Assembly: GCF_044704955.1 (NCBI RefSeq)
Contig: NC_091996.1
Span: 97,898,001 to 97,962,000, forward strand
Direction: 5' to 3'
Length of the DNA stretch: 64,000 nucleotides
DNA from: Pristiophorus japonicus
Lineage: Eukaryota
Below the pieces are notes generated by a model, which searched no databases, was not told the origin of the DNA, and saw nothing but the letters and a program-made list of their open reading frames with translations. A program made the translations under genes and the position numbers. This document shows, in pieces, positions 839 through 44,015 of this stretch; position 1 is the first letter of the stretch, and every line of letters begins with the position of its first letter.

Positions 839-897
839 ATTCGATGCTGTTCTGTCAAGGGACGGAACGTTGGAACTTGAATCGAGGAGAATCTTAC

Positions 898-3089: not shown

Positions 3090-3502
3090 GGTAGGTACTG
3101 CAGGGATTGGAGCGTAGTCAGGTGAAGGAGCGGCGAGAGACCGTGGAGGGAATGTGATCAGGGCCCAGGGGAGGTGTGAGTTTGGGGCCAGGGGCCCAGG
3201 GGCAGCACGGGCCCAGCCCACACTGCGATATGTGAGCGCACTGGTTCCGTGCAGCAGAGCTGGTCTCCAGTCGTCCTGGTTAACCCTTGCCCCTGGACCA
3301 AGACCTAGCTCTGTCAAGCCCCGTGTGGTGGCTGGTGTACAACGGTCACCCCACGTTAAAACAATCCACCCACAGGCATCTTCCACCCTTCGTGATATAG
3401 TTCAGGATCTGGAATATTAGGTCCTTCATTGAAACACCTGTGAACTCATCCTTATTTTGGCTTGAAGCAAGTCATCCTCGCTTCGAGGGACCGCCTATGA
3501 TG
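3090..3502 (+). mobile_element. RTE-related non-autonomous retroposon
   Basis: Multi-copy body (gcagcacgggcccagcccacactgcgatatg...) ending in gaagcaagtcatcctcgcttcgagggaccgcctatga, the same tail as the RTE LINE fragments at 34760 and 63000. Confidence 0.7.
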
Positions 3503-4494: not shown

Positions 4495-4830
4495 TGATCG
4501 GGGCGGAGGAGCGGCGAGAGTTCGGGGCCCAGGGGCAGCACGGGCCAGCCCACACTGCGATATGTGAGCGCACTAGGTCCGTGCAGCACAGCAGGTCTCC
4601 AGTCGTCCTGGTTAACCCTTGCCACTGGACCAAGACCTCGCTCTGTCAAGCCCGTGTGGTGGCTGGTGTGCAACGGTCACTCCACGTTAAAAAAATCCAC
4701 GCACAGGCATCTTCCACCCTTCAGGATGTCGTTCGGGATCCGGAATATTAGGTCCTTCACTGAAACATCTGTGAACTCGTCACTTTTTGGCATGGAAGCA
4801 AGTCACCCTCGCTTCGAGGGACTGCCTAAT
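4495..4830 (+). mobile_element. RTE-related non-autonomous retroposon
   Basis: Same body and tail as 3090-3502. Confidence 0.7.
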
Positions 4831-5087
4831 ACTATACTAATACTATAATACTATATATCCATTTCATGAATAAATATCCTGCTGGGCTGAGGTTCCCATT
4901 AATATGTCTGGATCGGTTTCATTGTTTGTGGGGATCTGTTTAACTGGCTGCGATGATGTGTCTGGTTATCCACAATTTGCACACAGAGTCGACAGGGCAA
5001 AAGATGACACCTTATCTTAAGTGCCCTGTTCTCCAAAAATGCACGCCTTATGGGGTCCTTTGTTGTCCTGGTTTCTTGCAGACTTGT

Positions 5088-5302
5088 TGTTACGCTCATA
5101 ATAAATGGTGAGACTGAGTACTGTGTGTAATGAGCGAATGTGAGCTTAGCTCCTTTATTGTAGTTCCAGAGAGCAGGTACCTTGTGGGTGACCTGCTTAT
5201 ATACTGTGCTCCCGAGGGATGCTGGGATCCCTTGGGACTCCAACAGGTGGGCCCTCTGGTGGCCAGGTGTGATGCAGGTTACAAGGAGTTAAATACAAAA
5301 CA
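5088..5302 (-). mobile_element. Solo LTR with 5-bp TSD
   Basis: TG...CA termini flanked by CTTGT at 5083-5087 and 5303-5307. AATAAA and TATA-like motifs lie on the - strand. Confidence 0.75.
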
Positions 5303-5576
5303 CTTGTGGTTCTCAGAGGGAACCGTTTCCCCTCCGGCCAATCAATCCACGGGCTCCTGGTTTAGATTACATCAATGCCTTTCTTTTGAGGCATAAACAG
5401 ATTTGGCTCTTGGTCGCAGAGATTGTTTTTAATCGGTGCCTTTTCCTCCTCCCCTGTCCAGTCAGTCCCAAAAGCTGGTTTTAAACCATGTTTCGTTCGT
5501 GGCCTCTTCCTGTGCCTTTTGTGAAAGTGTGCAACTGCGAGATACTGAAAATGCCTCGACTCTCAAAAGGTTTTGC

Positions 5577-5586
5577 AAGTGAAAGT
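5577..5586 (+). promoter_or_regulatory. IRF-E/PRDI-like site upstream of the chemokine gene
   Basis: AAGTGAAAGT about 360 bp upstream of the ATG. Motif match only. Confidence 0.35.
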
Positions 5587-5941
5587 AAGTGATGTGTTTT
5601 GATCAGGTTGGCTGTGACATTCCCCCCCCCCCCTCTCCCCAGGGTTTCTCGCAGCCTGGGGGGGTGATTCACCTTTAATCCGCAGAACTTCCAGGGGAGA
5701 TTTGCAGTGCACAGGGCTGAGTCAGGAAGGGTGGAGTTTGGAAATCGAATGTGAGGTGTACACTGGTAATCCCCTGTGTAGCGGCTGGCCATTGGCTCAA
5801 TGCACAAGTCTGATGCAAGTGAATGGAAACTGCTAGTGCCTGCCCGCCCGGTACAAAGAAACGGATCTGCCTCACTGTGTCTGCACTCTCTCGGCGCCGG
5901 GCTGTGTTGCAGTCGTTGACTTGTCTTTTATCCTGTCGGCT

Positions 5942-5987
5942 ATGGAGACCCTGATTCTGTGCCTCTTCCTCGTCTGCTCGGGAGCGG
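5942..5987 (+). CDS. Chemokine gene exon 1: signal peptide
   Basis: gctATGG start, encodes METLILCLFLVCSGA, donor G|GTGAGT (phase 1). Confidence 0.85.
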
Positions 5988-8900: not shown

Positions 8901-11900
8901 GGTGCAGAAGAGGTTTACCAAAATGTTGCTGGGACTGTAAAATCTAAGCTATGAGGACAGATTGTATAGGCTGGGTTTGTTTTTCTTGGAACAGAGGGGG
9001 CTGAGGGGACTCCTGATTGAGGTGTATAAAATTATGAGGGGCGTGGATAGAGTGGATAGAGGGGGTTGACTTATGAGGAAAGGTTGAGCAGGTTGGGCCT
9101 CTACTCATTGGAATTCAGAAGAATGAGAGGTGATCTTATCAAAACGTGTAAGATTATGAGGGGGCTCCACAAGGTGGATGCAGAGAGGATGTTTCCACTG
9201 ATGTGGGAGACTAGAACTGGAGGGCATGGTCTTAGAATAAGGGGCCGCCCATTTAAAACAGATGAGGAGGAATTTCTTCTCTCAGAGGGTTGTAAATCTG
9301 TGGAATTCGCTGCCTCAGAGAGCTGTGGAAGCTGGGACATTGAATAAATTTAAGACAGAGATAGACAGTTTCTTAACCGATAAGGGGATAAGGGGTTATG
9401 GGGAGGGGGCGGGGAAGTGGAGCTGAGTCCATGATCGAATCAGCCATGATCTTATTAAATGGCGGAGCAGGCTCGAGGGGCTGAATGGCCGACTCCTGCT
9501 CCTAATTCTTATGTTCTTCCCTTAAGAAGCTCCTTTAAAAACTACACTCTTTGACCAAGCTTTTGGTCACCTGCCGTAATCTCTTTGTTTTTTTGCGGAG
9601 AACACTTTTTATATAAACCACTCGACAAACGCAGAGTAATTTGGCTGTAATCCCACATTTCAGAATTGTATAAGTATTGGAATTCCTTTATTAACCAATT
9701 TGTGAATGCAATGAGCAGTTTCCTTCTGTTGCTGCAGAATACAAGCCGTCGACTCTATCTGAATCCAAACGGTTTTTAACACAGTATCTAACGAAATATT
9801 GGTTGATATTGTGACTGCAGGGTTGCATTTGGAACAGTTTTTTTTTCAAACATGTGTGTCCCATTGAAAGGTTCAGCACATAACCACAAGTATTTAGCAG
9901 GCTTGTGTGCCGTTGTGGAAAAGCCACTTTGCCAGTAAAACGGGAGATTTCATCAGAGTTCAATTCTAAAAACTTACGTTACTAACAATTACAAACACCA
10001 GAACCGTGCTGTCTATTTGTTACCTGGCTCAGTCTCAAATTCATTTTATTTGTCTTGTAACCCGCCTGTAAAGCACCCTGGGACATTTTACTAAGCTAAA
10101 GGCTCTATATAAATGTAAGTTGTTCTATTCAAGGCTGAGCGGGACAGAGTTTCACATACTAAGGGAACCGGAGTGTTTGAGTTTGTAGAGTCACTGTATG
10201 CTCCGGGGTTGAAAGGACTCGATTGGGTCCGTCAATGCTCACTCAAGAGACAATGTGAAAATTGTGACGTCCTGTTTTGCTGCCTCAGATCCTGGTGACG
10301 TGGGCGCCCGAACTGGTGGGATAGAGCAGACGGAGACCGGGGAAGGAACTCCTCATCCTGCACCTCCCACTGCAGGTCCAACCATTCCAATATCCAGCTC
10401 CTCCATCACGGCCGTCCCTGGGCTACACGGGCAAGAGAGAACCTTTACCCTTCAGCCAACACCGAACCCCCCCACCCGAGCCCACTGGCTTCAACATGTG
10501 GCTGTCACAACAAGAAACACAGCTGGAGAAACATCCGGGACAAGTCTCCATCCCAGGAATATTGTCACCACGACACTGACATCTCCTCCAAACAAACACG
10601 AGGCGGGAGAAGACAGGACTATGGAGGGCACTTACAGTCCCGGTAAGCATCATCATTCCCCTGTGTGTACTATAGAGAATAAAAGTCCCTATTATAGGGA
10701 ATAACAGCCCCTGTGTATATTGTACGGATTATAGAATCCAGGGACGAGCACATAGATCGTGGCTGACTCTCCAGTGAAGTACTGAGGGAGTGCCGCACTG
10801 TCGGAGGGGCGGTACTGAGGGAGTGTCGGAGGGGCGGTACTGAGGGAGTGCCGCACTGTCGGAGGGGCAGTACTGAGGGAGTGCCGCACTGTCGGAGGGG
10901 CGGTACTGAGGGAGTGCCGCACTGTCGGAGGGGCGGTACTGGGGGAGCGCCGCACTGTCGGAGGGGCAGTACTGAGGGAGAGGGGCGGTACTGAGGGAGC
11001 GCCGCACTTTTGGAGGGGCAGTACTGAGGGAGTGCCGCACTGTCGGAGGGGCAGTACTGGGGGAGCGCCGCACTGTCGGAGGGGCAGTACTGAGGTAGTG
11101 CTGCACTGTCGAAGGGGCAGGACTGAGGGAGCCCCGCACTGTCGGAGGGGCAGTACTGAGGGAGCGCCGCACTTTTGGAGGGGCAGTACTGAGGGAGTGC
11201 CGCACTGTCGAAGGAGCAGGACTGAGGGAGCCCCGCACTGTCGGAGGGGCAGGACTGAGGGAGCCCCGCACTGTCGGAGGGGCAGGACTGAGGGAGCCCC
11301 GCACTGTCGGAGGGGCAGTACTGAGGGGAGCTGTGTCCATGATCGGATCAGCCATGATCGTGATAAATGGCGGAGCAGGCTCGAGGGACCGTATGGCCTC
11401 CTCCTGTTCCTATTGGTTATGTTCTTATGACCTATTTCCCTCAGCAGAGGGGTCAACAACCAGGGGGCATAAATTTAAAGTAATTAGGGGGAGGTTTAGT
11501 GGAAATTTGAGGGAAAATTTCTTCACCCAGAGGGTGGTGGGGGTCTGGAACTCACGGCCTGAAAGGGTGGTAGAGGCAGAAACCCTCACCACATTTAAAA
11601 AGTACTTGGATGTGCACTTGAAGTGCCGTAACCCACAGGGCTACGGACCCAGAGCTGGAAAATGGGATTAGGCTGGGTAGCCCTTGGTCGGCTGGCCCGG
11701 ACACGATGGGCCGAATGGCCTCCTTGTGTCCTGTAAATTTCTCTGATTCTATGAGGGAGAGGCTCAGGGGATCTCTCTGCTGCCTGTGGGAATCTTAATC
11801 TGGGATAAGGGGATTGTCCTGTGAGGAGAGATTGAGTAGACAAGGCCCAGATTTTCTAGAGTTTAGAAGAATGAGAGGTGATCTCATTGAAACATAGAAA

Positions 11901-14900
11901 ATTCTTACAGGGATTGACAGGGTAGATGCAGGCTGGGGAGTCGAGAACCGGGGGTCACAGTCTCAGGATAAGGGGTCGTCCATTTAGGACGGAGATGAGG
12001 AGGAATTTCTTCACTCAGAGGGTGGTGAATCTTTGGAATTCTCTGCCCCAGAGGGCTGTGGAGACTCAGTCGTTGAGTATATTCAAGGCTGAGATCGATA
12101 GAGTTTTGGATATTACGGGAATCGAGGGATATGGGGATCGAGGGGGAAAGTGGAGTTGAGACGAAGATCAGCCATGATCGTATTGAATGGCGGAGCAGGC
12201 TCGAGGGGCCGAATGGCCGACTCCTGCTCCTAATTCTTATGTTCCTCCCTTAAGAAGCTCCTTTTAAAAACTGACCTCTTTGACCAAGCTTTTGGTCACC
12301 TGCCGTAATCTCTTACCTGGCTCGGTCTCAAATTAATTTTATTTGTCTTGTAACCCGCCTGTGAAGCACCCTGGGACATTTTACTCAGCTAAAGGAGCTA
12401 TATAAATGTAAGTTCTATTCAAGGCTGAGAGGGACAGATTTTCACATACTAAGGGAACCGGAGTGTTTGAGTTTGTAGAGTCACTGTATGCTCCGGGGTT
12501 GAAAGGACTCGATTGGGTCCGTCAATGCTCACTCAAGAGACAATGTGAAAATTGTGACGTCCTGTTTTGCTGCCTCAGATCCTGGTGACGTGTGCGCCCG
12601 AACTGGTGGGCTAGAGCAGACGGAGACCGGGGAAGGAACTCCTCATCCTGCACCTCCCACTGCAGGTCCAACCATTCCAATATCCAGCTCCTCCATCACG
12701 GCCGTCCCTGGGCTACACGGGCAAGAGAGAACTTTCACCCTTCAGCCAACACCGAACCCCCCCACCCGAGCCCACTGGCTTCAACGTGTGGCTGTCACAA
12801 CAAGAAACACAGCTGGAGAAACATCCGGGACAAGTCTCCATCCCAGGAATATTGTCGACATGACACTGACATCTCCTCCAAACAAACACGAGGCGGGAGA
12901 AGACAGGACTATGGAGGGCACTTACAGTCCCGGTAAGCATCATCATTCCCCTGTGTGTACTATAGAGAATAAAAGTCCCTATTATAGGGAATAACAGCTC
13001 CTGAGTATATTGTACGCATTATAGAATCCAGGGACGAGCACATAGATCGTGGCTGACACTCCAGTGAAGTACTGAGGGAGTGCCGCACTTTCGGAGGGGC
13101 GGTACTGAGGGAGTGTCGGAGGGGCGGTACTGAGGGAGTGCCGCACTGTCGGAGGGGCAGTACTGAGGGAGTGCCGCACTGTCGGAGGGGCAGTACTGAG
13201 GGAGTGCCGCACTGTCGGAGGGGCGGTACTGAGGGAGCCCCGCACTGTCGGAGGGGGCAGTACTGAGGGAGTGCCGCACTGTCGGAGGGGCAGTACTGAG
13301 GGAGCGCTGTACTATTGGAGGGGCAGTACTGAGGGAGCGCCGCACTGTCGGAGAGCCAGTACTGAGGGAGCGCCGCACTGTCGGAGGGACGGTACTGAGG
13401 GAACGCCGCACTGTCGGAGGGGCAGTACTGAGGGAGCGCTGCACTGTCGGAGGTGCAGTACAGAGGGAGTGCCGCACTGTCGGTTGGAACATTAAACAGA
13501 GGCCCTGTCTGCTCTCTCAGATGGACACAAAAGATCCCAGGGCCACTATTTCAAAGAAGAGCAGGGGAATTCTCCTCTGTGTCCTGGGGCCAATATTTAT
13601 CCCTCGACCAACATCGCAAAAACAGATTATCTGGGTCATTATCACATTGCTGTGTGTGGGAGCTTGCTGTGCGCAAATTGGCTGCCGCGTTTCCCACATT
13701 ACAACAGTGACTACACTTTTGGAGCATTTTGAGATGTGCGGTGGTTGTGAACGGTGCTATATAAATGTACAGGAGGAGGCCATTGGGCCCATCGAGCCTG
13801 TGCCGGCTCTGTGAGCGAGCGATCCCATCAGTCCCATCCCCCCGCTCTCTCCCCACAGCCCGGTGAATGTTTCCCCGTCAAGTATTGATCCAATTCCCGG
13901 TTTGAAAGTTACTATTGAATCTGCTCCCACCGCCCTTTCAGGCAGCGCGTTCCCGATCACAACAACTCGCTGCGTAAAAACATTCTCCCCATCTCCCCCT
14001 CTGGTTCCATCGTCGATTATCGTCAATCTGTGTCCCCCTGGTTACCGACCCTCCTGCCCCCGGGAACAGTCTCTCCCGATCGATTCTATCGCGTTATGGT
14101 ATGCGTGAAGCACTGTGTTAGAATCCCACTTGCAAAGCAAGTTCCCGGCAGGATGCTGGCTGTTGACGTGAAGATTTCGGACTGACGGTCGTGTTGCTGA
14201 CTTGGGTCGATAATCCGTGCTGTTTTTACAGGCTCCACAACGTCAGGACGCGGAGGGGCGAGAATGGGCCACGGAGTCGGGCCTGGGGTTGGAGGTTTGC
14301 TGCATTGCAAGGATTGCGACGAGCAACACAGATACTCGGCCGGTGAGGTCACAGCAGGTCAATGGTTGGCACTGGGCCTGTTGGCGTCTGCCATCGCGCT
14401 GCTCCTCACTGCTGCCATCCTCTTCGCCAGCATCAAGTTTAAGTGCACACAACAGATGCCAGGTGAGCTAACCGAGAGATGGAGGCAGACTGTCCTGCCC
14501 TCCGCCTCGCTGTGAATGGAGGGCAGTGCACGAGTTGGTGAGGCCAACCTTCTGGTAGTGAGGGGGGGGTGAATTAACGACGTTCAGCGGACCCCGGGAC
14601 ACTGGGGATGGTCAGGGCTGACTTGGGAGCAGGGGTGGTCTCCGATCGATTGGGAATTGAGATTTGGGCTTGTCACAAACCACCTCCTAGTGGACCTGGC
14701 TCCACAGTACAGGAGGGGCGAGGGGTCCACAGACATGCTGGGCCCACTGCCCTCCCTCGGTGCTGTATCCTGCTCTCGCTCAGCTTGACTGGCCTCCTGC
14801 ACATTTGCCCTGCTCCCCAGGCTCCACCATCAGCGGCTGTGTCTTCAGCTACCAGGGCCCTCAGCTCTGGGACCCTTTCCCTAAGTCTCTCCGCCTCTCT

Positions 14901-17388
14901 CTCTGACCAAGCCTCTGGTGGCTCGGTGCCAGTTCTTGTCTGACCACGCTCCCGTGAAGTGCCTTAGGACCTAGGTACACAGGAACAGGAGGAGGCCCAT
15001 TCAGCCCCTCGAGCCTGTTACACAGGAACAGGAGGAGGCCCATTCAGCCCCGCGAGCCTGTTACATAGGAGCAGGCCATTCAGCCCCTCGAGCCTGCTCC
15101 GCCACTCAATGAGATCGCGGCTGATCTGTGACCTAACTCCATCCACCCGCTGTAATGTATTTGCTCCGTGGGTTCTTTGCTTTAGAATCTACAGCAACAC
15201 ATTGCTATTAAGAACTAGTTGGTTTATTAGCAAAGGTTTAACAATCACGCGACACATTAACGGTTCATCCACCAGGCTCACAACCACCTGCCCCATCGTG
15301 GATCCCCCGAACCCAACTGGCTGGGGTTTTATTGAGTCTTGTGAACATCATGTGACTGGCTAAGCCCCTCCCAATGCAACAGTGCCACCAGCCTGTGACC
15401 ATACTCTCGGGGCGTACACTACACCCACCTTTGACCCGTATCCCTTAATAAATTTGATTAACAAAAATATATCGATCTCTGATTTAAAATTAACAATTGA
15501 CCCAGCATCAATTGCCGTTTGCAGGAGAGTTCCAAACCTCTCCCACCCTGTGTGTGTCGGAGTGTTCCCTAATTACACTCCTGAAGGGTTTGGCTCCAAT
15601 CTTTAGACTGTGCCCCTAGTCCCAGACTCCCCAACCAGCGGGAATTGTCTCCCAACCACCCTCTCTGCTCCCCGTAATATCCTGAAACCTTCGATCAGAG
15701 CCCCCCTTAACCTTCTATAGTCTGGGGAATACAGCCCTAGTTTGTGTAATCTCTTCTTGTAACTTAACCCTTGGGGTCCAGGTAGCATTCTGCTGACTTT
15801 TACTGCATGAAGGGTGGTTATATAAATGTAGGTTGTTGGTGCAGTATTGAAAGTCTGACTGATTTTGTGGGCTGAGGGCGGGGGAGGGGAAACGACTCTG
15901 GGACGTTTGGTTTATTTGAGGCCTTATCTACCATTGCTGAAGGCCTCATCCATGCCCCTGTTACCTCTCGGCTTGACTATTCCAACACACTCCTGGCCGG
16001 CCTCCCACATTCTACCCGACGTACTGGAGGTGATCCAAAACTCGGCTGCCCCGTGTCCTAACTCGCATCGAGTCCCACTCACCCATCACCCCCTGTGCTC
16101 GCTGACCCGTGTCCTAACTCGCACCCAGTCCCACTCATCCATCACCCCCTGTGCTCACTGCCCCGTGTCCCAAATCGCACCCAGTCCCGCTCACCCATCA
16201 CCCTCTGCTCGCTGACCCGTGTCCTAACTTGCACCCAGTCCCGCTCACCCATCTCCCCCGTATCCTAACTCACACCGATCCCGCTCACCCATCACCCCCT
16301 GTGCTCACTGCCCCGTGTCCTAACTCGAACCGACTCCCGCTCACCCATCACCCCCTGTGCTCACTGCCCCGTGTCCTAACTCGCACCCAGTCCCGCTCAC
16401 CCATCACCCTCTGTGCTCACTGCACGTGTCCCAACTCGCACCGAGTCCCACTCACCCATCACCCCCTGTGCTCGCTGACCCGTGTCCTAACTCGCACCGA
16501 GTCCCACTCATCCATCACCCCCTGTGCTCACTGCCCCGTGTCCCAACTCGCACCCAGTCCCGCTCACCCATCACTCCCTGTGCTCACTGCCCCGTGTCCT
16601 AACTCGAACCGACTCCCGCTCACCCATCACCCCCTGTGCTCGAATGGCCGACTCCTGCACCTATTTTCCATGTTTCTATGTTTCTCTGCTCCAAGGAGAA
16701 CAACCCCAGCTTCTCCAGTCTCTCCACATAACGGAAGTCCCTCGTCCCTAGAACCATTCTGGTCAATCTCCTCTCTCCCCTCCCCCAAGCCTTCACATCC
16801 TTCCTAAAGTGCGGTGCCTAGAATTGAACCCAATGCTCCAGCTGAGGGATGACCTTGTTCTATAAAGGTTTACCAGAACTTCCTTGGGTTCTGTACTCTA
16901 TTCCCCAATTTATAACCGCTTGCAATTTCAAAATAGCTGCCGGGGTCAGAGAGACAGGCAAGCTTGGGAAGGTGAAAGGTCAGAGAGGGTAAAATGGCGG
17001 CAACAATCGGTAAGGCAGGATCTAAATTTAAAGTTTTAAAAAAATATCGAGAAAGCCAGAGAAAGAATAGGAGGGAAAACAAAGAGCCGGAGAGAGTAAG
17101 CACGGGTTAAAGTGTTTACAGTTTTATATCAATTTGTCTTTTGGCGGACGTTTGAGTCAGTCATTTACCGTTAACCTTGTGACACGAGCACCGATTTTAT
17201 TGCTTTGTGTTTAGTGTTTGTCACAGCCTGAGAGCCAGAAACAGCCAGATGTTTCTCAAGGGCCTGCCAGTAGTGTTGAGGGTTAAACCGCTGACTTTTA
17301 ACCCCCACCCTTTGTGTTTTATACAGATGTTATGGTGCGAGGTGTGCGATACAGCAGGATTTGCGGCCTTCGCACTGACACAGTGTGA
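5942..17388 (+). CDS. Transmembrane mucin-stalk chemokine with CC motif (CXCL16/CX3CL1-like architecture), 7 coding exons, 424 aa
   Basis: Exons 5942-5987, 6899-7040, 7926-8011, 10289-10642, 12579-12932, 14232-14462, 17327-17388. All introns are GT-AG and the phases 1,2,1,1,1,1 join into one 1275-nt ORF. Confidence 0.85.
6899..7040 (+). CDS. Chemokine gene exon 2: CC motif and third Cys
   Basis: Acceptor gtgttttatccacAG. Encodes VCGGRLSDSAGRSCCEPKLPQPLNISEFNKLQNYVTLSGQGRCPEYLV. Donor GT|GTAAGT is phase 2, the canonical chemokine intron position. Confidence 0.88.
7100..7815 (+). mobile_element. Deu-SINE (3' truncated) with 33-bp array, in chemokine intron 2
   Basis: tRNA-like head (ggttcaagtccc) followed by the 33-bp unit array. 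Confidence 0.75.
7926..8011 (+). CDS. Chemokine gene exon 3: FTT...FC strand and C-terminal helix
   Basis: Acceptor tttactgtcacAG, encodes FTTNANQRFCILSGKAQAMKEFVDARST, donor G|GTAAGA. Confidence 0.85.
8535..9518 (+). mobile_element. CR1 LINE 3' fragments (two joined pieces)
   Basis: Translations FNLEKCEVMHLG, YKTLVRPQLEYCVQFWSP and YEERLSRLGLYSLE, with a CR1 tail gactcctgctcctaattcttatgttc. Confidence 0.9.
9585..10020 (+). mobile_element. AT-rich insertion, possibly a decayed Penelope-like GIY-YIG fragment
   Basis: Absent from the paralogous duplicate (~12313) and interrupts an L2-type tail. From ~9890 it translates as VFSRLVCRCGK / (frameshift) FASKTGDFIRVQF. Confidence 0.35.
10289..10642 (+). 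CDS. Chemokine gene exon 4a: mucin-like stalk
   Basis: Acceptor ttttgctgcctcAG, 354 nt, Thr/Pro/Ser/Gly-rich (DPGDVGART...EGTYSP), donor G|GTAAGC, symmetric phase 1. Confidence 0.8.
10735..11325 (+). mobile_element. Deu-SINE fragment with 33-bp array
   Basis: 33-bp unit array after the SINE head remnant. Paralogous to 13025-13768. Confidence 0.75.
11330..12245 (+). mobile_element. Several CR1 LINE 3' fragments
   Basis: TRGHKFKV...FFTQRVVGVWNS and GHSLRIRGRPFRTEMRRNFFTQRVVNLWNSLP, each with a CR1 tail. Confidence 0.85.
12579..12932 (+). CDS. Chemokine gene exon 4b: duplicated mucin-like stalk
   Basis: Near-identical copy of exon 4a, 2290 bp downstream, with intact splice sites and open frame. 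Confidence 0.78.
13025..13768 (+). mobile_element. Deu-SINE with 33-bp array and L2-type tail
   Basis: Array, Deu core and tail gtgctatataaatg. Confidence 0.8.
14232..14462 (+). CDS. Chemokine gene exon 5: juxtamembrane + TM
   Basis: Acceptor tgtttttacAG. Encodes GSTTSGRGGARMGHGVGPGVGGLLHCKDCDEQHRYSAGEVTAGQWLALGLLASAIALLLTAAILFASIKFKCTQQMP. Donor G|GTGAGC. Confidence 0.85.
14975..15790 (-). mobile_element. CR1 LINE 3' fragment interrupted by a solo LTR
   Basis: Minus-strand GLSYKKRLHKLGLYS...RRLRG and a reiterated CR1 tail. Confidence 0.7.
15151..15423 (-). mobile_element. Solo LTR
   Basis: TG...CA termini with near-TSD CCCGC/CCCAC. Second copy at ~40407-40647. Confidence 0.7.
15940..16640 (+). 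repeat. L2 fragment with ~57-bp tandem expansion
   Basis: L2 ORF2 remnant (..LEVIQNSAA..) followed by the 57-bp unit array. Confidence 0.8.
17327..17388 (+). CDS. Chemokine gene exon 6: cytoplasmic tail
   Basis: Acceptor ctttgtgttttatacAG, phase 1. Encodes DVMVRGVRYSRICGLRTDTV-stop. Confidence 0.75.
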
Positions 17389-18484
17389 GCAGAGCTGGGG
17401 TGATGTACGGCAGGAAGTTTGAACGGCAGAGCTGTGTGAAGTGGTGCCTGGACGTGCGAGGGGGGAGGGGGAACGGCGGATCCCTTCTCGTGCTCCACCG
17501 TTACCCGCTGAGCAAAGCTGGCGATGGGCCTGGAGAGCAGGGGGCCTTTCGAAGGGGCCCAGCCATTCCGGGACATCTTCGGCTAACGTAATCCAGGGAA
17601 GGCTTTGCGGAGCTGGAGGCGATGGGCCGAGCTCGGACCGTTCAAATGTGTCGCGCCTTCAGCTCTTCGCACCTTGGCCTCTTCCCAAGATGCACCGCTT
17701 CCGGACAAGGATTGGTAAAGCCCATCGGTCAGACACAGGCCGAGAAGGATGACTGTGGGCCGAGATGGCATTGTATTGTCCGTCTTTTGCGATGTGTGTT
17801 TTTCCGCTTAATTTTGTTCGTTTTACCCGGGGCGGGCGGGCGGGGGTGGGGGAGTGGGGGGGGTGGCCTTTGTGACCCATTGAGCCAATGGGGCCGTTCC
17901 CCACCATCACTCCCCACCCACCCAGTGGTTTCAACCACCGCCATTCACAAAACTCCGTGCTGGGAAATACCATGTTGTGAGGCGGGGGGGGGGGGGTAGA
18001 TCCCGTCAGGAGGGAAAGAGTTCCCTCGAGAGCGACGGAGGAGCCAGAGGGTGCAGTGCAACCAAAGGTTTGGTATTGTGGAGGGGGGGGGTTCTGACGT
18101 GCTGGACTCGAGCATGCATGTGTGCACACGGAGCTGGACACAGAGACCCACAGAGGTGGGCACACCGACAGATACGTACGCACAGGACACACCCCAGGTC
18201 TCAGTGGGCAGCACTCTCTCTCTCTCTCTCTCTCTCTCGTCTCACAGTCAGGAGGTTGAGAGTTCGAGACTTGAGCAGATCACGCGACACGGTGATGCCA
18301 CTGGACATAGCAGGCACCTGATTAGGGACTATCCACAAATAGCGGGTGCTTTTCAGAAGAGTACAATTCACACAGCTGCTCCCGGCCACATGACCGGTGA
18401 TCGACTGCTCCTCACTGGCTGGAAATAACTCTGTGCGCGTTCATCGATAACGTTCTCTGCCCTCAGCACCTCTTTGCTCAGTCT

Positions 18485-25580: not shown

Positions 25581-28500
25581 CTGTTATGGGGAAGTGTGGG
25601 GTGAACGATCACACCAGGAACCGCCCACAGCTGGAGGCAGCGGACCATTAGACGGTGGTGGGACCTCTCCGGGATCTCACCGTTCCTCGCGTGCGAGCCG
25701 AGGCTATTCAACTGCAGACTGCATCACAGCCGAGCCGGTCTCTACAGTTTCCGGCAGGGATGGGGGTGGAGGGCGGGGGGATTGGAAACAGTGACTTTGG
25801 TGGTTGGTGCCACCCATTAACCACAGCCCAGGGTGGCTGGGCTTGTCAATAACCAAACCCCTCCCCCATCGCCTGTCATCCCACTAACCATCGAATCACA
25901 GCACGCACCATGGACCGGGGATTGGAGAACGACACAGCACAGAGGGTGATCATTGGGCCCATCGAGCCTGTGCCGGCTCTGTGAGCGAGCGATCCAATCA
26001 GACCCACTCCCCCCGCTCTCTCCCCACAGCCCGGCACATGTGTCCTTTCAAACATTTATCCAATCCCCTTTAGAAAGTTACCAGTGAACCTGCCCCCATC
26101 GCCCATTCAGGCAGCTCGTTCCCGATCACAATAACTCGCTGGGTGACAAAACATTCCTTCTCATCTCCCCCTCTGGTTCCATCGCCGATTATCGTCAATC
26201 TGTGCCCCTCTGGTTACCGGCCCTCCTGCCCCCGGGATACACGTTCTCCTCAATTACTCTTTGTAAACCCTTCGTGATTTGGGACGCCTCTGGCAAGTCG
26301 CCACAATAACCGTCTCTGCTCCGAGAACGATCCCGGTTTCTCCGGTCTCCCCTACGCGGCTGGAGTCCCTCAGCCCACCTCCGGTTGGGGAGGGGGTATG
26401 GTCTCCTCCGGCTCTGTTGGGCTCAGTGTCACTTGGACTGGCGGCCCGTACTGACGGGGCCTTTGGAGGAACGGTTCGAAGCCTCGAGTCACACCCACCT
26501 GCTCGCTGGATTCGGGTTGCTGCCGATTCCCTCCGGCAAGCCCCGGGGCCCGGTTCGGGGATTTCCCTGCGGAGTAAGGGCACAGCGATGAGCCCGGAAT
26601 ATTAAACGCAGGCACTCGCGGAGCAGCGCAGGCAGTGCCGGCCCTCGAGTGCAGTCACTGTTGTAGTGTGGGGAAAACACGGAGTGCACAGCAAGATCCC
26701 ACAAGCAGCACTGCGATTATGACCAAGCGTTGGATCAATAATTGGCCCCATACACCGAGGAGAACTTTCCCCCTGCTCGTCTTCCAATAGTGGCTCCGGG
26801 AAACTTTGGCGTCTGCCCCGAGGAGCCAGGCAAGACCCTCGGTGTAAACCAGGAGGCGGGAGTCGGGGAGGGGACAGTTAAATCCAGCGGGGGTGGGGGG
26901 GGGTAGGGGCTGGACACTAACCTGACTCCGATCCCACAACCCTCGGCCCGATCTGACTGACCGCCCCAAGTTGGCGTGGACCTATTTAAATGTACAGGGA
27001 CTTCAGCACATGGATCTAGGCCGACACTCCCCGTGCAGTACTGAGGGAGTGCCGCATTGTCGGAGGGGCAGTACTGAGGGAGCGCCGCACTGTCGGAGGG
27101 GCAGTACTGAGGGAGTGCCGCACTGTCGGAGGGGCAGTACTGAGGGAGCACCGCACTGTCGGAGGGGCAGTACTGAGGGAGCACCGCACTGTTGGAGGGG
27201 CAGTACTGAGGGAGTGCCGCACTGTCGGAGGGGCAGTACTGAGGGAGCACCGCACTGTCGGAGGGGCAGTACTGAGGGAGTGCCGTGCTGTCGGAGGGGC
27301 AGTACTGAGGGAGTGCTGCACTGTCGGAGGGGCAATACTGAGGGAGTGCTGCACTGTCGGAGAGGCAGTACTGAGGGAGTGCTGCACTGTCTGCTCTCTC
27401 AGATGAATGTAAAAGATCCCACGGCACTATTTCGAAGAAGAGCAGGGGAATTATTCCCAGTGTCCTGGGGCCAATATTTATCCCTCAATCAACAATTCTA
27501 GCAACAGATTATCTGGTCATTATCACAATACTGTGTGTGGGAGCTTGCTGTGTGCAAATTGCCTGCCGCGTTTCCCACATTACAACAGTGACTAAACTCC
27601 AAAAGTACTTCATTGGCTGTAAAGCGCTTTGGGACTTCCTTTTTTGGCACCTTGACACTTTTTGCTAGAGTATGGGACAGGTACTAGAGTGTGTGGGGCA
27701 GGTACTAGAGTGTGTGGAAGAGGTACTAGAGTGTGTGGGACAGTTACTAGAGTGTGTGGGAGAGGTACTAGAGTGTGTGGGACAGGTACTAGAGTGTGTG
27801 GGAGAGGTACTAGAGTGTGTGGGAGAGGTACTAGAGTGTGTGGGACAGGTACTAGAGTGCGTGGAAGAGGTACTAGAGTGTGTGGGGCAGGTACTAGAGT
27901 GTGTGGGAGAGGTACTATAGTGTGTGGGAGAGGTACTAGAGTGTGTGGGGCAGGTACTAGAGTGTGTGGGAGAGGTACTATAGTGTGTGGGGCAGGTACT
28001 AGAGTGTGTGGGAGAGGTACTATAGTGTGTGGAAGAGGTACTAGAGTGTGTGGGAGAGGTACTAGAGTGTGTGGGAGAGGTACTAGAGTGTGTGGAAGAG
28101 GTACTAGAGTGTGTGGGACAGGTACTAGAGTGTGTGGGACAGGTACTAGAGTGTGTGGAAGAGGTACTAGAGTGTGTGGGGCAGGTACTAGAGTGTGTGG
28201 GAGAGGTACTAGAGTGTGTGGGACAGGTACTAGAGTGTGTGGGGCAGGTACTAGAGTGTGTGGAAGAGGTACTAGAGTGTGTGGGAGAGGTACTAGAGTG
28301 TGTGGGACAGGTACTAGAGTGTGTGGGAGAGGTACTAGAGTGTGTGGGACAGGTACTAGAGTGTGTGGGAGAGGTACTAGAGTGTGTGGAAGAGGTACTA
28401 GAGTGTGTGGGGCAGGTACTAGAGTGTGTGGGAGAGGTACTAGAGTGTGTGGGACAGGTACTAGAGTGTGTGGGAAATGTACTAGAGTGTGTGGAAGAGG

Positions 28501-31500: not shown

Positions 31501-34500
31501 ACTTATCTTTACAGAGCTCAAAATTCGCAGAAACAAAGAATCTAAATGCCGACATGCAAAATATTCTCCGAAATACAAGTGAGTGTGTATTTACCTTTGT
31601 TATGTTTTTTTACCAAGAAGTAGATCAAAGACACCAATGGAACGATGATCAGGGCGACGGAAACTGCAGCCAATGACTGGTACGAGGCAGGAGCTGGGGG
31701 CACCATTGCTGAAAGAGAAGTTCCATTGTCTGCACTTTGTCAAATGAACGTCTGATATAGGGACCCACCAGCCCCCGGGCAGAGAGGGTTCACATTCCTC
31801 ATGGGCCCTGGGAATGGGCAGAGGAGGTACAGACTGACCTGTTGTCCCATGGACTCTGGGAATGGGCAGAGGAGGTACAGACTGACCTGTTCTCCCATGG
31901 GCCCTGGGAATAGGCAGGAGGAGATACAGATGGACCTGTTGTCCCATGGACTCTGGGAATGGGCAGGAGGAGATACAGACGGACCTGTTCTCCCATGGAC
32001 TCTGGGAATGGGCAGGAGGAGATACAGACGGACCTGTTTTCCCATGGGCCCTGGGAATAGGCAGGAGGAGATACAGACAGACCTGTTCTCCCATGGACTC
32101 TGGAAATGGGCAGGAGGAGATACAGACGGACCTGTTGTCCCATGGACTCTGGGAATGGGCAGGAGGAGATACAGACTGACCTGTTCTCCCATGGGCCCTG
32201 GGAATAGGCAGGAGGAGATACAGATGGACCTGTTGTCCCATGGACTCTGGGAATGGGCAGGAGGAGATACAGACGGACCTGTTCTCCCATGGACTCTGGG
32301 AATGGGCAGGAGGAGATACAGACGGACCTGTTTTCCCATGGGCCCTGGGAATAGGCAGGAGGAGATACAGGCTGACCTGTTGTCCCATGGACTCTGGGAA
32401 TGGGCAGGAGGAGATACAGACGGACCTGTTGTCCCATGGACTCTGGGAATGGGCAGGAGGAGATACAGGCTGACCTGGAGTGCTGGTGTGTCCACTCTCC
32501 CTTGTTCCCTCCAGTCTTATTTTGCTCCCCTCTGACAGAAGGGAGCGGGGAGGAAGGCAGGGGGTGGAGGGGGGGTGTGTCAGTGTGTTTGTTTTCTATC
32601 TAATCTAGATCCAGTCTGTTTGATTTTCAGGCAGTCAAGGCTGTTCTGTTGCCCACTTGTTTTGGGGGAAGGGGGAGAGAGACCGGAACTATGGGCCATA
32701 AATATAAGATAGTCACTAATAAATGCAAAGGGGGAATTCAGGAGAAACGTCCTTATTGTAGCGGAAAGGGCCCCAGCCTGTTGAGTCAGTCCCGATACTC
32801 CTACTACCACCTTGTATCTACGTCTCACATGGATTGTGCCCAGAATATCGGAGGAGGTTTGTCAGGAGGTGGTCATCGCCTTTGCAATCTTCAGAGGTGA
32901 CAGCACATTGCCAGCAGACAATGGTTACACCTTTCAACAAGGAGAAAAGGAATCACCAAGCAACCATCAACCGGTCCACCTTAGGTCAGCAATAGCAATA
33001 TTACTCCAGAGCTTCATTAGAAATCAACTAAAGGATTATCGAGAAGGGCGTGAACTGATTAGGGGCAGTCAGCTTGGAAGTGAGAAGGGAGGAGTGTAGG
33101 TGGGATCTTCAATGACCAGAAACTGTTGGATAATGTTCTGCCTCAGAGATTGGTGAAGGAAGTTAGAAGAGATGGAAGGGGGGGGTTTGGTACAAACAGA
33201 GACATGGGCAGACGTCACCTCCAGCTGGAAATCCCAGAAGTAGTGCCGACGCTGGGGAATTAGTGGGACAGCATCTTAACCCATCTCCCGTCCCCTAACC
33301 AGCACCCCACCCCCACCACCTCACCACCTGACATCGGGCAGTAGCTGCCGCAGAAACTACCAAGAGAGAGGCAGCAGGATATAAACGGGCGAGGTGAACA
33401 TGGGCAGAGAAGTGGCAGCTGCAGTTTAATACAGAATTAAAAAGCGGCATTTGGTGAGAAAGATAATGGCAATCTACATTAAATAATACCTACCCTGTAC
33501 CAGCACCACAGATCCATTTCCACAAAGTGTCCTGCTTGGGTGAGGTTTGAGGATCGTAACCTGACACCTATAGGTACCATTGTCCTTTTGAGATGCTCGG
33601 GTGATCCTTAAGACTGAGAATTTCCTTGGTAAATCAGCTGTGGCAGAGACTCTGGGGTCAGGACTAACACACTGCGACGAATCAGAGATATTAGCCTTTA
33701 TAGGGCAGGACACCTCAGTACTCGCCCCACTCCAGGTGAAGTTGAGCCCCTCTGGGTCAATGGCTGCTGTTGTCTGTAAGGTGCAGGTCAGAGAGATGCT
33801 TTCTCCTTCCGTTACCGAGAGGAAGGGAGGAGTCTGGGAGACAAATTCTGTCGGTGGTCCGGCTGCTAGACAAAAGGGACACAAGGTTCAGAAAACGGTA
33901 ACGAGAGAATCACAGATTCAGAGTGAGCGAATATTGAAACACCATTGAAGAGGAAATCTCAAGTGTCACAACATAAGGTAGAGTGATAAGTACTACAGGG
34001 AATCGAATACGGCCAGGGTGATCTCCTGGACTAGTGTCGATCACCTGGGTGGGTCGCAGAGGAATTTTCCCAGATTTTTTCTCCCTAAATTGGCCTGGGT
34101 TTTTATCTGTTTTTTGCCTCTCCCAGGGGATCACATGGCTCTTGTTGCGGTGGAGTGTAGAATGTTTCAGTATAAGGGGTGTCACAGTTGTGTGGGACGG
34201 ACTGGTTGGGCTGGGTGCTCTTTGCCTTTCCGCCATTGTTCATTGTTCATAGGTTTATCAGTAACCCTCAGGGCTGCTGGCCGAGGGCCGTGTGGCTCTT
34301 TGTCGGCCGACGCGGACACGATGGGCCAGAATGGCCTCCTTCTGCGCTGTAAATTTCTATGTTTCTATGAGATTCTTGAGCCATGAGAAGGGAAGAGTAC
34401 CTGAGGTGTTTTCCCACTCCCTAACTCGTTCTTTTATCTTCGGAATACCTTATCTGAGAGGGGTAGCAACCAACGCTAAAGAGCGTCAACTATTCCTTCA

Positions 34501-37500
34501 TAGGCTGCTACCTGGTCCCTCTCCAAAGCAACCTCTACCCGGCCAAATGGTATCTCTGCCTTATTCTACCAAGAGACAGAGTGACGGCACTAAAAAGATC
34601 AACATGTGCTCGACTTGTCATTGAGGGCGCTTCCTCTTTTGCTCGAAGTGGGGACATTGGCCGTGAATGGGTGGGAGAGCTCCCGAACCACTCCCATCCT
34701 CACCATCTGAATTCGGGCCACAGCTGGGTGCAAAATCCAGCTCGCACACTGTCCGAAACAGACTACACGATACGAGACACGAAACTCCCAAAGCAAGCGC
34801 TCTACTCGGAACTCCTTCACGGCAAGTGAGCCCCAGGTGGGCAGAGGAAACGTTACAGGGACACCCTCAAAGCCTCCCTGATAAAGTACACCATCCCCAC
34901 CGACACCTGGGAGTCCCTGGCCCAAAGACCAGTCCACCCTAAGTGGAGGAAGTGCATCCGGGAGGGCGCTGAGCACCTCGAGTCTCGTCGCCGAGAGCGT
35001 GCAGAAACCAAGCGCAGGCAGCGGAAGGAGCGTGCGGCAAACCAGTCCCACCCTCCCCTTCCCTCAACCACTGTCTGTCCCACCTGTGACAGGGACTGTG
35101 GTTCCCGTATTGGACTGTTCAGTCACCTGTGGACTCACTGTTAGAGTGGAAGCAAGTCTTCCTCGATTCCGAGGGACTGACTACGCTGATGATGATGACG
35201 ATGACAGGAGGACACAATCAGGAATGGGGCAAAATGGGCAGGTAAGTGGCTTATGCAGTTTAATACAGAAAGTGTGACAATACATTTTGAAATTGCCATT
35301 CGCCCTGATTTGGGGGGAGGGGGAGTGGGAGGGGGGTGGGCACTAACCTTCCGGGTCCAGGGCTTCCTGCGGTCAGCCTGAAAGTCCCACCCTCGACGTG
35401 CAATTGGACTGTGCGTCCCTGAAAGTAAGCGGAGCGCTGTCTCTGGCGATGCGCTTGGTTTGAGGGGCGTTCCGCTCCCAGGGCAGCCGGCGCTACGCGG
35501 GCGCAGTACAATGCACCTCCCTTTCAGGGCCACTGAGCAATCTGCAGGACCGATGGCGGACTGCCGCCGGAGGTGGTGCGTTCGACAAGGCCAGCAGCCC
35601 AGCACCCAACAACGGAGCGGCAGGCTGCACGATGGCCACCATTGTCGGGCCGACACACGAGTTGGCCGACAAATAAAGATGGCGGCCTGGGGCGCTACGG
35701 GGCTCCCCTTTAAGGGGCGGCCCGGGCGGCGGATTTGCGCAGGCTTCGCCTGGTCGCGGGGGCCAATTTCCACCCCCCCTCCCCCCTCCCCGCGCGGGAC
35801 ACGAAAAGGTCGCTGCCGGGCACTGAGGGATCGGTGCGCGTGACGATGATGTCATCACCCGTTGTGCACCAGCCCGGGGCACGAATCGTGGGGCGCGATG
35901 CGCTGCTGGGACCCCGCCACCCAAAACATCCGGGGGGGGGCAATTTTCCCCGAAGGCGCCATTGTGCCCCACAGAGGCACTCACACTCAAAGAATGGAAA
36001 TATACCTTAAACTGTTCCTACCTTGCACCAGCACAACACAGCCATTTCCTTGAAGTTGGATGATCGGAACGGGATTGGCAATCTTAACCTGACACCAATA
36101 GGTACCACTGTCCTTTGGAGATGCTCGGGCGATCGTTAAGACGGAGGATTTATTTGATAAATCAGCTCTGGCGGAGACTCTGGGATCAGAACTGTTACAC
36201 TGCGATGATCCAGAAGTGTGTGCTTCAACAGGACAGATCACATGGGTACGCTCCCTGGTCCAGTTGAAGATGAGCTCTTGTACATCAGTGGGTGGTATCT
36301 GTAAGGTGCAGGTCAGAGTGACCGTTTCCCCTTCCTTTACCGAGAGAAAGGAGGGGGTCTGGGAGACAGAACGTTGCATCAGTGCAGGGGCTGGATGAAA
36401 GGACAGAAGGCTCATTAACGTGCCAGGTGAAAAGACGAGTGAACGATTTAACGAATACAGCGAACATTGATCTAGAATTTAGGAACGTGCGAATATTCAA
36501 ACACTATTGAAGAGGATTGCCTAAAGGACCTTCTTGTGTGATACTGAGGCATACAGGCTGGAAGGTGCCCGATTATATCCCATCTGTACCAAGGAACCTA
36601 ATCTCACTGAGGGCAGGAAATGGGGAGAGGATGGGCAGGGCCAACAATTAGGCTCCTGGCCCTTTGGGGTGTAAGATGAGCCATACTATCCGTCTCTGAT
36701 CACAATCCAGTCACCCCCCCCCCCACCGCTGGTGGCAAAGATGTGCGACAACAAGCCTTGAATGGTAGATGGAGAATAGCCCAACCATACAGGTTAAAAC
36801 AACAAATTGAATTTATTTACACTTCAATCATATACAGAAGCAAAAACACTGGATGTTTAAAACATTGTACCAGCAACAACGCCTGGTTATATATCATCTT
36901 TTACTGGAATATTTCCCACGGTGCCAAATACTCTATCTGTCCCTAGGGCAGATCCTACATCAAGTCTCACTCATGGGAGGAAATCATTATCGTTGTCACA
37001 GGCAGTTCCTCGAAGCGAGGATGACTTGCTTCCACGCCAAGAAGGGATGAGTTTACAGGTGTTTCGATGAAGGACCTAATATTCCGGATCCCGAACTACA
37101 TCCTGAAGGGTGGAAGATGCCTGTGGGTGGATTGTTTAACGTGGGGTGACCGTTGCACACCAGCCACCACACGGGGCTTGACAGAGCGAGGTCTGGGTCC
37201 AGGGGCAAGGGTTAACCAGGACGGCTGGAGACCTGCTCTGCTGCACGGACCCAGTGCGCTCACATATCGCAGTGTGGGCTGGGCCCGTGCTGCCCCTGGG
37301 CCTTCGCCTCTCCTGGGCCCCGGTCACTTCCCTCTACAATCGCTCGGCTCTCCTGGGCCCCGGTCACTTCCCTCTACAATCGCTCGGCTCTCCTGGGCCC
37401 CGGTCACTTCCCTCTCCGGACTCTCACTGCTCCTTCGCCCCTCCTGCTGTGCCTGCCCGCACTACAATCAGCGACCTGACTTCGCAGCCGTCGCCCTCCT

Positions 37501-43500: not shown

Positions 43501-44015
43501 NNNNNNNNNNNNNNNNNNNNNNNNNNNNNNNNNNNNNNNNNNNNNNNNNNNNNNNNNNNNNNNNNNNNNNNNNNNNNNNNNNNNNNNNNNNNNNNNNNNN
43601 NNNNNNNNNNNNNNNNNNNNNNNNNNNNNNNNNNNNNNNNNNNNNNNNNNNNNNNNNNNNNNNNNNNNNNNNNNNNNNNNNNNNNNNNNNNNNNNNNNNN
43701 NNNNNNNNNNNNNNNNNNNNNNNNNNNNNNNNNNNNNNNTCTCCCTTCTCTTCCCTTCTCACCACCAGTTTCTGATGATCACCACACCCCTCTGAGATCT
43801 GAGTCCCTTTTGACTTTTCCGATCAACAGGAAGGTTTGCAACACTGAGTTAATCTGAACCGCTAAACATCGCTGTTAGCAGGCTGGCTTCCTGGACAGTG
43901 TAAGCGGAGACATTCAGACAACAGTCGGGATCGTGGCCGAGCCCATCTTACCGGTAACAAGGAGAGAGATGCAACTTGTCCAGACCCAGGCAGGAGCGAG
44001 GCATCTCCGAGTCAT
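25381..44015 (-). CDS. Two-V-domain Ig superfamily receptor, CD28H/TMIGD2-like (CD28/NKp30 VJ family)
   Basis: Exons: leader 44015-43952, V1 36390-36022, V2 33865-33494, TM 31708-31595, terminal 25580-25381. All are GT-AG and phase 1. Small cytoplasmic exons in between are uncertain. Confidence 0.75.
26995..27640 (+). mobile_element. Deu-SINE with 33-bp array
   Basis: Array plus Deu core and 3' body. Confidence 0.8.
27665..29485. repeat. 21-bp minisatellite
   Basis: Unit aggtactagagtgtgtgg(gag/gac/ggc/aag). Confidence 0.95.
29940..30525 (+). mobile_element. CR1 LINE 3' fragment
   Basis: GLTYEERLDRLGLY...NFFTQRVVNLWNSLP and a (tttctatg)n tail. Confidence 0.9.
31015..31440. repeat. 65-bp tandem repeat
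   Basis: Unit ctgccctgggagtgtttgatgggacagtgtagagggagctttactctgtatctaaccccctgtac. Same family as 59385-60390. Confidence 0.9.
31595..31708 (-). CDS. IgSF receptor transmembrane exon
   Basis: Acceptor cttctctttcAG, donor G|GTAAAT, 114 nt. Encodes AMVPPAPASYQSLAAVSVALIIVPLVSLIYFLVKKHNK. Not present in the ORF track. Confidence 0.82.
31800..32475. repeat. 49-bp minisatellite
   Basis: Unit gggaatgggcaggaggagatacagacggacctgttctcccatggactct. Variants recur with a 294-bp period. Confidence 0.9.
33494..33865 (-). CDS. Ig V-set (VJ-type) domain exon 2
   Basis: VSQTPPFLSVTEGESISLTC...FTW...VSCP...QC...LRITRASQKDNGTYRC...GNGSVVLVQ. NAGNAG acceptor (33865 or 33862), donor G|GTAGGT. Confidence 0.92.
34760..35205 (+). 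mobile_element. RTE-clade LINE 3' fragment
   Basis: TKLPKQALYSEL...CPTCDRDCGSRIGLFSH and a (gat)n tail. Confidence 0.85.
36022..36390 (-). CDS. Ig V-set (VJ-type) domain exon 1
   Basis: VSQTPSFLSVKEGETVTLTC...FNW...VICP...QC...LTIARASPKDSGTYWC...GNGCVVLVQ. Acceptor tcctttcatccAG, donor G|GTAGGA. Confidence 0.92.
36990..37615 (-). mobile_element. RTE-related non-autonomous retroposon, near full length
   Basis: Reverse complement of the family at 3090/58120, with a short internal tandem duplication. Confidence 0.7.
37630..38935 (+). mobile_element. CR1 LINE fragment with RT domain
   Basis: DFSKAFDKVPHGRL, SGVPQGSVLGPLLF and KFADDT motifs. Stops and frameshifts present. Confidence 0.93.
38950..40065 (-). 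mobile_element. Full-length Deu-SINE with 33-bp array
   Basis: Minus-strand tRNA head, array, Deu core and tail aaaggcgctatataaatgcaagtcttt. Confidence 0.82.
40407..40647 (-). mobile_element. Solo LTR (same family as 15151-15423)
   Basis: High similarity over ~220 bp, starting tgtaatg. Confidence 0.65.
40945..42098 (+). mobile_element. RTE-related retroposon with 24-bp tandem expansion
   Basis: Unit ccagggcccaggagaggcgagagt repeated over ~40945-41790, continuing into the retroposon body and RTE tail. Confidence 0.8.
43952..44015 (-). CDS. IgSF receptor leader (signal peptide) exon
   Basis: Encodes MTRRCLAPAWVWTSCISLLVT, donor G|GTAAGA phase 1, compatible with V1. RUNX (ACCACA ~44092) and ETS (ACTTCCT ~44140) motifs lie just upstream. 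Confidence 0.7.

Follow-up and report, generated by a model that had tools for sequence, protein, structure and literature searches.

A sawshark receptor gene with two tandem germline-joined V domains and its apparently unnamed clade

What kind of receptor is encoded by two paralogous V exons lying in tandem in a 64,000-nucleotide stretch of the genome of the sawshark Pristiophorus japonicus? The stretch, hereafter the window, is placed at 97.90-97.96 Mb of contig C20 in the sawshark genome (G000). In the original prediction, made from the sequence alone, the two exons (V1 and V2) were assigned to a CD28H/TMIGD2-like receptor that used them either together or as alternatives. The gene investigated here is real and transcribed. 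Its product, a type I membrane receptor assembled by splicing, carries two VJ-type domains that lie in tandem and do not rearrange. The gene falls in an apparently unnamed clade of germline-VJ receptors (1-4 V domains each), present in sharks, rays, a chimaera and two amphibians. We lean slightly towards reading it as an inhibitory checkpoint receptor from an unnamed branch with kinship to CD28 and PD-1.

Structure and transcription of the two-V gene

A leader exon, V1, V2, a transmembrane (TM) exon and a first cytoplasmic exon were identified on the minus strand. The features are, in coordinates of the window:

43952..44015, minus strand: leader exon; ATG at 44015, 64 nt, phase-1 donor; equals residues 1-21 of database protein P0001
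36022..36390, minus strand: V1 exon, membrane-distal germline-joined VJ-type domain; 369 nt, phase 1-1, AG/GT ends
33866..36021, minus strand: V1-V2 intron; 2156 nt, GT..AG; spliced out in a 602-nt contig of run X1
33494..33865, minus strand: V2 exon, membrane-proximal VJ-type domain; 372 nt, phase 1-1, NAGNAG acceptor, AG/GT ends
31595..31708, minus strand: short stalk and uncharged TM exon; 114 nt, in phase; aligns with the TMs of orthologues
26499..26566, minus strand: first cytoplasmic exon; CAG/GT donor; read through by the database model P0001
21497..21696, no strand: run of 200 N between two tandem arrays; putative site of the missing tyrosine-bearing last exon(s)

Joined, the five exons are translated into 329 amino acids that match exactly the start of P0001, a protein filed under Pristiophorus japonicus as 'turtle homolog B-like', and the leader (44015) and TM (31708) exons on either side of the V exons are in phase, as first placed. 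Both V exons match the Pfam V-set (E 5e-15 for V1 and 3e-11 for V2), are 58-60% identical to each other and display the B- and F-strand cysteines, the C-strand tryptophan, D-x-G-x-Y-x-C, GNG and an extra cysteine pair at W+9/W+21. Coordinates, Pfam and motif check thus agree with the two paralogous V exons first described. The FG region reads YWC-QVKIAN-PVP-IIQLQ-GNG in V1 and YRC-QVTILK-PHP-SRTLC-GNG in V2, with one more cysteine after GNG in V1 and before GNG in V2. These fifth cysteines by the GNG strand (Cys139 and Cys259 of P0001) were seen in each sawshark domain and not in five aligned orthologues; an inter-chain disulfide is possible.

In both exons the J-like strand sits within the V exon, which is not the plan of a rearranging Ig/TCR V segment, and no recombination signal sequence heptamer was found on the coding strand between 33000 and 37000. 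As in the original prediction, no TM exon is evident in the intron between V1 and V2, where no 19-residue window of the three sense frames exceeds a mean hydropathy of 1.9. The core of the TM, LAAVSVALIIVPLVSLIYFLV, has zero charged residues, in line with the uncharged TM described before. The spliced model contains no C1 exon; SIRP receptors have a V-C1-C1 plan, and CD300 has its own cysteine pattern. The AlphaFold model of V1 displayed a V-set fold with a predicted local distance difference test (pLDDT) score of 90.7; the full-length model (6 sequences, pLDDT 45.6) was useless for the domain arrangement.

V2 was present in two runs, X1 and X2, of one study. Neither is recorded as RNA, and both were taken as RNA because the intron is skipped and coverage is confined to exons. 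A single 602-nt contig of X1 spans 230 nt of V1 and the whole of V2 and omits 2156 nt with GT-AG ends; contig 6 of this run has 105 further letters past the start of V1. X2 did not cross the V1-V2 joint, which makes X1 the sole informative run there. The unbroken contig places V1 and V2 on one transcript, not on separate ones, and therefore points to one two-domain receptor, the exon-duplicated form that had been proposed. Mutually exclusive use of the V exons, the other form proposed, was unsupported in X1, because the contig should be interrupted at the joint if a V1-TM or leader-V2 isoform were abundant; rare isoforms drop out of such contigs. Yet the database isoform P0005 of the basking-shark orthologue omits V2, and skipping of either V exon preserves the reading frame.

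Distribution of the receptor family

Protein searches returned unnamed or misnamed elasmobranch proteins as relatives, and three types were distinguished. Type A, to which this gene belongs, has two V domains in white shark, basking shark, Mustelus and one sawfish gene, three in horn shark and one in whale shark. Type B has a single V domain and no tyrosine motifs, and lies about 42 kb from the leader of this gene on the opposite strand. Type C, also with a single V, lies about 800 kb away and has inhibitory and switch motifs (ITIM and ITSM, see below) in three database orthologues. The models of sawfish, stingrays, manta and skate place a type-B domain ahead of one to three type-A domains, giving 2-4 V domains with splicing as annotated in the database. 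Single-V relatives were found in a chimaera, a caecilian and axolotl, and P0050, P0058 and P0140 are single-V members of the clade. A profile made from four sawshark domains scored family members at 77 bits or more per domain, compared with 53 for the next protein. The extra cysteine pair was present in 22/22 type-A domains and in none of the type-B (0/11) and type-C (0/5) domains.

VJ domains in tandem are, by themselves, no rarity among sharks: the sawshark protein P0156/P0171, named 'polymeric immunoglobulin receptor-like', has two tandem NKp30-like VJ domains. The label NKp30-like on P0156 and P0105 is our own, based on a motif. In the horn-shark model P0002 a LECT2-like piece is fused at the N-terminus, probably by an annotation merge.

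The family was not found described in literature searches by topic and with six LOC identifiers, most subscription papers being outside their scope, so that a prior description is possible. In the nine supplements of PMC11599192, a survey of the CD28 family cited throughout in this form, three orthologue accessions (type A of white shark, type A of whale shark, and skate), one chimaera accession and two loop motifs were absent, and the available text of PMC12227049 does not mention CD28, ITIM or PILR.

FG loop and cysteine pattern

Both V1 and V2 have proline at F-strand Cys+7 and +9 and GxG at +15, a spacing of YxC-x6-PxP-x5-GxG. Among 40 family domains the proline at Cys+7 was found in 38, and GxG at +15 in 27 (32 when +16 is included). 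The CD28-type domains of this genome have P+7 and P+9 in 13/13 and GxG+15 in 9/13, and the same loop spacing was detected here in CD28H, CD28HL1/2, CD28X and one CD28/CTLA4 domain. No P+7 was present in the seven complete NKp30-like or the four NITR-I-like domains, and the loops were shorter in both; GxG was at +10 to +14 in the former and at +11 in the latter, compared with +15 in the family. The labels CD28H, CD28HL1/2 and CD28X were given by visual comparison with supplements 3 and 4 of PMC11599192, L005 on C18 matching the epaulette-shark CD28H; CD28/CTLA4 was assigned from an ICOS V-set Pfam match and the PPP motif, and the labels NITR and TCR on unnamed proteins are motif-based. The E-I-P of CD28H is absent, N-P-V-P standing in V1 and K-P-H-P in V2.

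In ten multi-domain proteins P-x-P was intact in 10/10 outermost domains and in 3/15 inner ones, these rows being related and not independent. Its conservation in outermost domains points to V1 as the binding domain.

The extra cysteine pair of human TMIGD2, which the original prediction had named, was verified at W+8/W+22 in a supplement of PMC11599192, next to W+9/W+21 here. The shark CD28H on C18 has no extra pair, but such a pair is present at W+9/10 and W+24-26 in four V exons of a cluster on C11. Since it turns up repeatedly in this group, the pair is no marker of CD28H. In NITR-I-like domains the extra cysteines are at W+23/+36, and the four conserved cysteines of each V domain of this gene are positioned unlike the six of the NITR I domain.

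Six more V exons with CD28-type P-x-P loops were noticed at C11:79.89-81.05 Mb (L064, L065, L078, L090 and L091) and C13:21.93 Mb (L066). Two have EIPPP, four have the extra cysteine pair, and by motif they correspond to no member among the nine in print; sharks seem to possess a wider CD28-like repertoire than has been described.

Phylogenetic position

In a quick tree of 78 domains the 40 family domains formed one clade, with a support of 96 in the Shimodaira-Hasegawa-like approximate likelihood ratio test (SH-aLRT). A careful tree of 47 domains, from which 31 near-redundant or long-branch rows had been dropped, supported the family clade at 82/92 (unstarred). The clade was separate from CD28H/HL/X, CD28/CTLA4, NKp30-like, NITR and TCR/IgL domains (a grouping with TCR/Ig V domains had been named beforehand as one that would contradict the CD28-type assignment); SIRP, CD300, PD-1 and human TMIGD2 were not in the trees. 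Grouping of type A with CD28H was rejected by the approximately unbiased test (p-AU 0.001). An identity with CD28H/TMIGD2 is thus not supported, E-I-P being absent and the shark CD28H being another gene.

Across shark species the V domains tend to cluster by position, first with first and second with second, which suggests an old V1/V2 duplication; a duplication confined to the sawshark was neither recovered nor rejected (p-AU 0.33).

Structural searches made no family call. With the V1 model, generic V-set matches lay within about 2.5 Z units of one another. PD-1 was among many near-tied matches for V2 and for the V1 model, V2 matching PD-1 weakly at an E of about 2e-4, and in the ESM Atlas, with P0003 as query, MPZL1, PD-1, CTLA4, CD7 and NCR3-like clusters were tied at 0.95-0.96.

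Cytoplasmic tails

By the consensus definitions in the available text of PMC12151841, an ITIM (immunoreceptor tyrosine-based inhibitory motif) is present in 5/6 orthologues and an ITSM (immunoreceptor tyrosine-based switch motif; TEYAMV, TEYAVV, TEYAEV, TAYAEI) in 4/6:

Horn shark tail: VLYAVL/TAYAEI/SVYTVV
White shark tail: VVYSMV/AAYAEI/TEYAMV
Basking shark tail: VVYSMV/GAYAEI/TEYAVV
Mustelus tail: VLYAMV/VAYASI/TEYAEV
Whale shark tail: IVYLLV/SAYTEI
Sawfish orthologue tail: no motif

The tail of the sawshark protein P0001 is tyrosine-poor. A contig of X1 covers 26499-26567 and then has 447 more letters that continue elsewhere, X2 has a 177-letter loose end at 26499, and neither run gave read cover at 26270-26489. 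Because the contigs stop at 26499 and continue elsewhere, the tail of P0001 is explained as splice read-through of the donor at that position. The first 30 letters past 26499 in X2 encode Y-x-x-V where the orthologues have their first tail motif. These letters had no match in the window or G000, a gap and a masked stretch being indistinguishable, and searches for the last exon, with tails of orthologues (tblastn) and k-mers in the window and with a pattern and the tail of the basking shark in G000, gave no match. The assembly appears to lack the true last exon, which probably lies under the 200-N run. The database model wrongly makes the sawshark protein look non-signalling, and its name 'turtle homolog B-like' is a misnomer. 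A Y-x-N-x motif was found in none of the six orthologue tails, the sawshark tail being read in part. The orthologues carry the motifs of an inhibitory tail, and part of a putative inhibitory tail is seen for the sawshark gene.

Chromosomal context

On C20 the gene has TAF6 (97.59 Mb), SRRT (92.3), MEPCE (88.1), a NYAP-family gene (85.5) and a MOGAT-like exon (99.10) as neighbours, all human 7q22 genes; for PILR, a 7q22 position agrees with the literature. Paralogues of the NYAP gene on distal C20 are located on C10 and C6, and C10 also holds a transferrin-receptor-family match and CD28X. C20 appears to be paralogous to the PD-1-linked block. The transferrin-receptor-family marker matches C10 and C29, not C20, and TFRC is a PD-1-linked marker in PMC11599192. 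These positions are compatible with a link by whole-genome duplication to the PD-1 and CD28X loci and are no proof of it, PD-1 itself not being located; the 7q22/17p13/3q paralogy was not confirmed in the literature, and a search with the Pex19 marker was uninformative. Pentraxins had hinted at a 1q23 location, which was abandoned since the spliced exons of UFC1 map to C34.

CD28-type genes were found elsewhere: CD28H on C18, CD28HL1/2 on C2, CD28X on C10, CD28/CTLA4 on C3 and the CD28HL3 markers on C8. Orthology with CD28HL3 was rejected by synteny, AMPKBI and PLA2 matches being on C8 and other contigs and none on C20; tmem233 was not searched. CD28HL3 is like the orthologues of this gene in its ITIM/ITSM tail, and the loop spacing is shared by bichir CD28HL3 (supplement 4 of PMC11599192). 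The markers PRKAB1 and PLA2G1B match C8:182-183.6 Mb, and a VJ-type exon (L070) lies at C8:179.66 Mb, 2.5-4 Mb from the PRKAB/PLA2 matches, its tree position being unsure (long branch). L070 is a candidate shark CD28HL3, which the survey PMC11599192 did not find.

Directly behind type C, at C20:98.76-98.77 Mb and about 830 kb from this gene, is a B7/CD276-like V exon (L043:1876-2253); in the manta model P0051 the gene is V-only with a hydrophobic C-terminus. A complex prediction of V1 with this neighbouring V domain scored 0.00 and is evidence neither way. A frameshifted PILR-like V exon (L044:1492 onward; weak, E 6e-4) was also seen behind type C.

Proposed function and alternatives

The CD28 family in the latest survey (PMC11599192) comprises nine members, each with one V domain in an IgV-TM-cytoplasmic architecture. 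With these the gene shares a germline VJ-type V domain, the YxC-x6-PxP-x5-GxG spacing, a type I TM, a tyrosine-motif tail (seen in its orthologues) and, as human CD28H does, two additional cysteines close to the C'-D region. It is unlike them in having no EIP or PPP and in lying at a 7q22-marker locus outside the synteny blocks named in that survey. Because it departs from the single-V architecture and from these blocks, the gene is not a filed CD28-family member. PD-1, of which sharks possess their own gene according to the available text of PMC12151841, is similar in the ITIM, the C-terminal TEYxxV ITSM (in orthologues here) and the uncharged TM, and differs in having two tail tyrosines instead of three, in its single V domain and in lacking the P-x-P and GxG present here. 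An extra branch of the CD28/PD-1 family is the likely ancestry, with a deep placement that the trees do not settle.

If the gene encodes an inhibitory checkpoint receptor, its outer domain V1 would bind a cell-surface Ig-family ligand, probably of the B7 type, through the front face and the P-x-P FG loop, as in CD28/CTLA4, and V2 would mainly be a spacer. Ligand engagement would lead to phosphorylation of the tail tyrosines, and the ITIM/ITSM would recruit SHP-1/SHP-2 and damp lymphocyte activation, as by PD-1.

Several observations weigh against this assignment. The CD28-family link first proposed is seen in the FG-loop spacing and was not recovered in the tree, where grouping with the CD28 family was not rejected either (p-AU 0.09); in the best tree the family's neighbours are the NKp30-like domains (73/74), and grouping with NITR-I was not rejected (p-AU 0.34). 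Both germline light-chain V ends compared (2/2) have proline at Cys+7. Sequence, profile and fold searches of the PDB gave mostly TCR/Ig V domains. The 1-4 V domains differ from the one of the published definition (PMC11599192). Searches with the TSC22 and Fis1 markers gave no match on C20. The first sawshark motif, EGYSLV, the sole one read so far, is without the hydrophobic -2 residue of an ITIM, and no ITIM is present in the sawfish orthologue or the ray fusion genes.

A wider reading, held tentatively as a whole, is that the gene represents a tenth, overlooked CD28-family branch, a whole-genome-duplication sister of the PD-1 and CD28X loci on a 7q22-type chromosome that was kept in sharks, rays, chimaeras and amphibians. 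It would be the only branch that stacks and shuffles V exons (1-4, with ray paralogue fusions) with the outermost ligand-binding loop constant, and the linked V-only B7-like gene may be its ligand. If true, such an additional old lineage, in which tails bear ITIM/ITSM and the number of domains varies, would broaden the early jawed-vertebrate checkpoint repertoire, supply a candidate sister of PD-1 and make it possible to test directly whether inhibition is tuned by the length of the ectodomain. The main interest lies in an unnamed ancient clade with ITIM/ITSM tails and domain stacking.

We consider it rather unlikely that the gene encodes an inhibitory receptor of the germline-VJ type descended from NKp30 or NITR, belonging to an NK-type paired-receptor cluster of ITIM-bearing and tail-less members, with a CD28-like loop acquired independently and a non-B7 ligand. 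The best tree joins the family, weakly, to the NKp30-like domains, the same species has the tandem protein P0156, and the cluster includes members without tyrosine motifs and a PILR-like remnant. NKp30/NCR3 also has a single-exon VJ domain, but carries a charged TM arginine; here the TM is uncharged, the tail in orthologues is of the inhibitory type and the proline-bearing FG loop is longer. The NITRs of ray-finned fish have an ITIM tail and a germline J-like strand in both of their two Ig domains, which is the plan of the orthologues here, and bowfin NITRs sit among CD276-like genes; their I domain, however, has six conserved cysteines (both from the available text of 10.1101/2021.06.11.448072), unlike the two V-type paralogues of this gene with their different cysteine positions and longer FG loop. 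The GNG strand lacks the F of FGxG in both exons.

It is improbable that the tail of the sawshark copy is weakened or non-inhibitory and that the protein serves as an adhesion, decoy or modulatory receptor, perhaps as a covalent dimer through its unpaired cysteines. The non-canonical first motif, the ITIM-less sawfish orthologue and the absence of Cys139 and Cys259 from the five aligned orthologues would agree with this, but the tail is joined where it is joined in the ITIM-bearing orthologues, keeps the first tyrosine and is followed in X1 by the 447 further letters. A duplicated CD28H/TMIGD2 orthologue with alternative V exons for different ligand specificity is barely credible, its orthology being largely refuted: the near-human position of the cysteine pair, isoform P0005 and the preserved frame speak for it, and the CD28H on C18 without the pair, the tree test, the missing EIP and YxN and the unbroken contig speak against it.

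Other features of the region

Pfam scans of 385 open reading frames (ORFs) round the locus, a length- and repeat-filtered subset, gave nothing beyond V domains, pentraxins, a DAGAT exon, pieces of retroelements and two matches below the cutoff. Positions 1-18213 of the window and about 43 kb before it contain three tandem copies of a unit, 21-24 kb apart and 95-99% alike, which is either a real duplication or an assembly artefact. The unit contains, on the minus strand, a stalk-plus-TM exon (about 1085-893 of the window), ORFs without a Pfam match and, at 14201-14512 on the plus strand, an ORF with the hydrophobic stretch GQWLALGLLASAIALLLTAAILFASIKF, likewise without a Pfam match.

Between this gene and type B are a LECT2-like stretch with a stop codon (L025, about 4960-5230) and a pentraxin fragment (L026:4141-4380), and an intact CRP-like pentraxin is located at C20:99.11 Mb. 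From just behind the V and stalk exons of type B, pure tandem repeat extends over at least 90 kb (C20:97.99-98.08 Mb, L028-L036).

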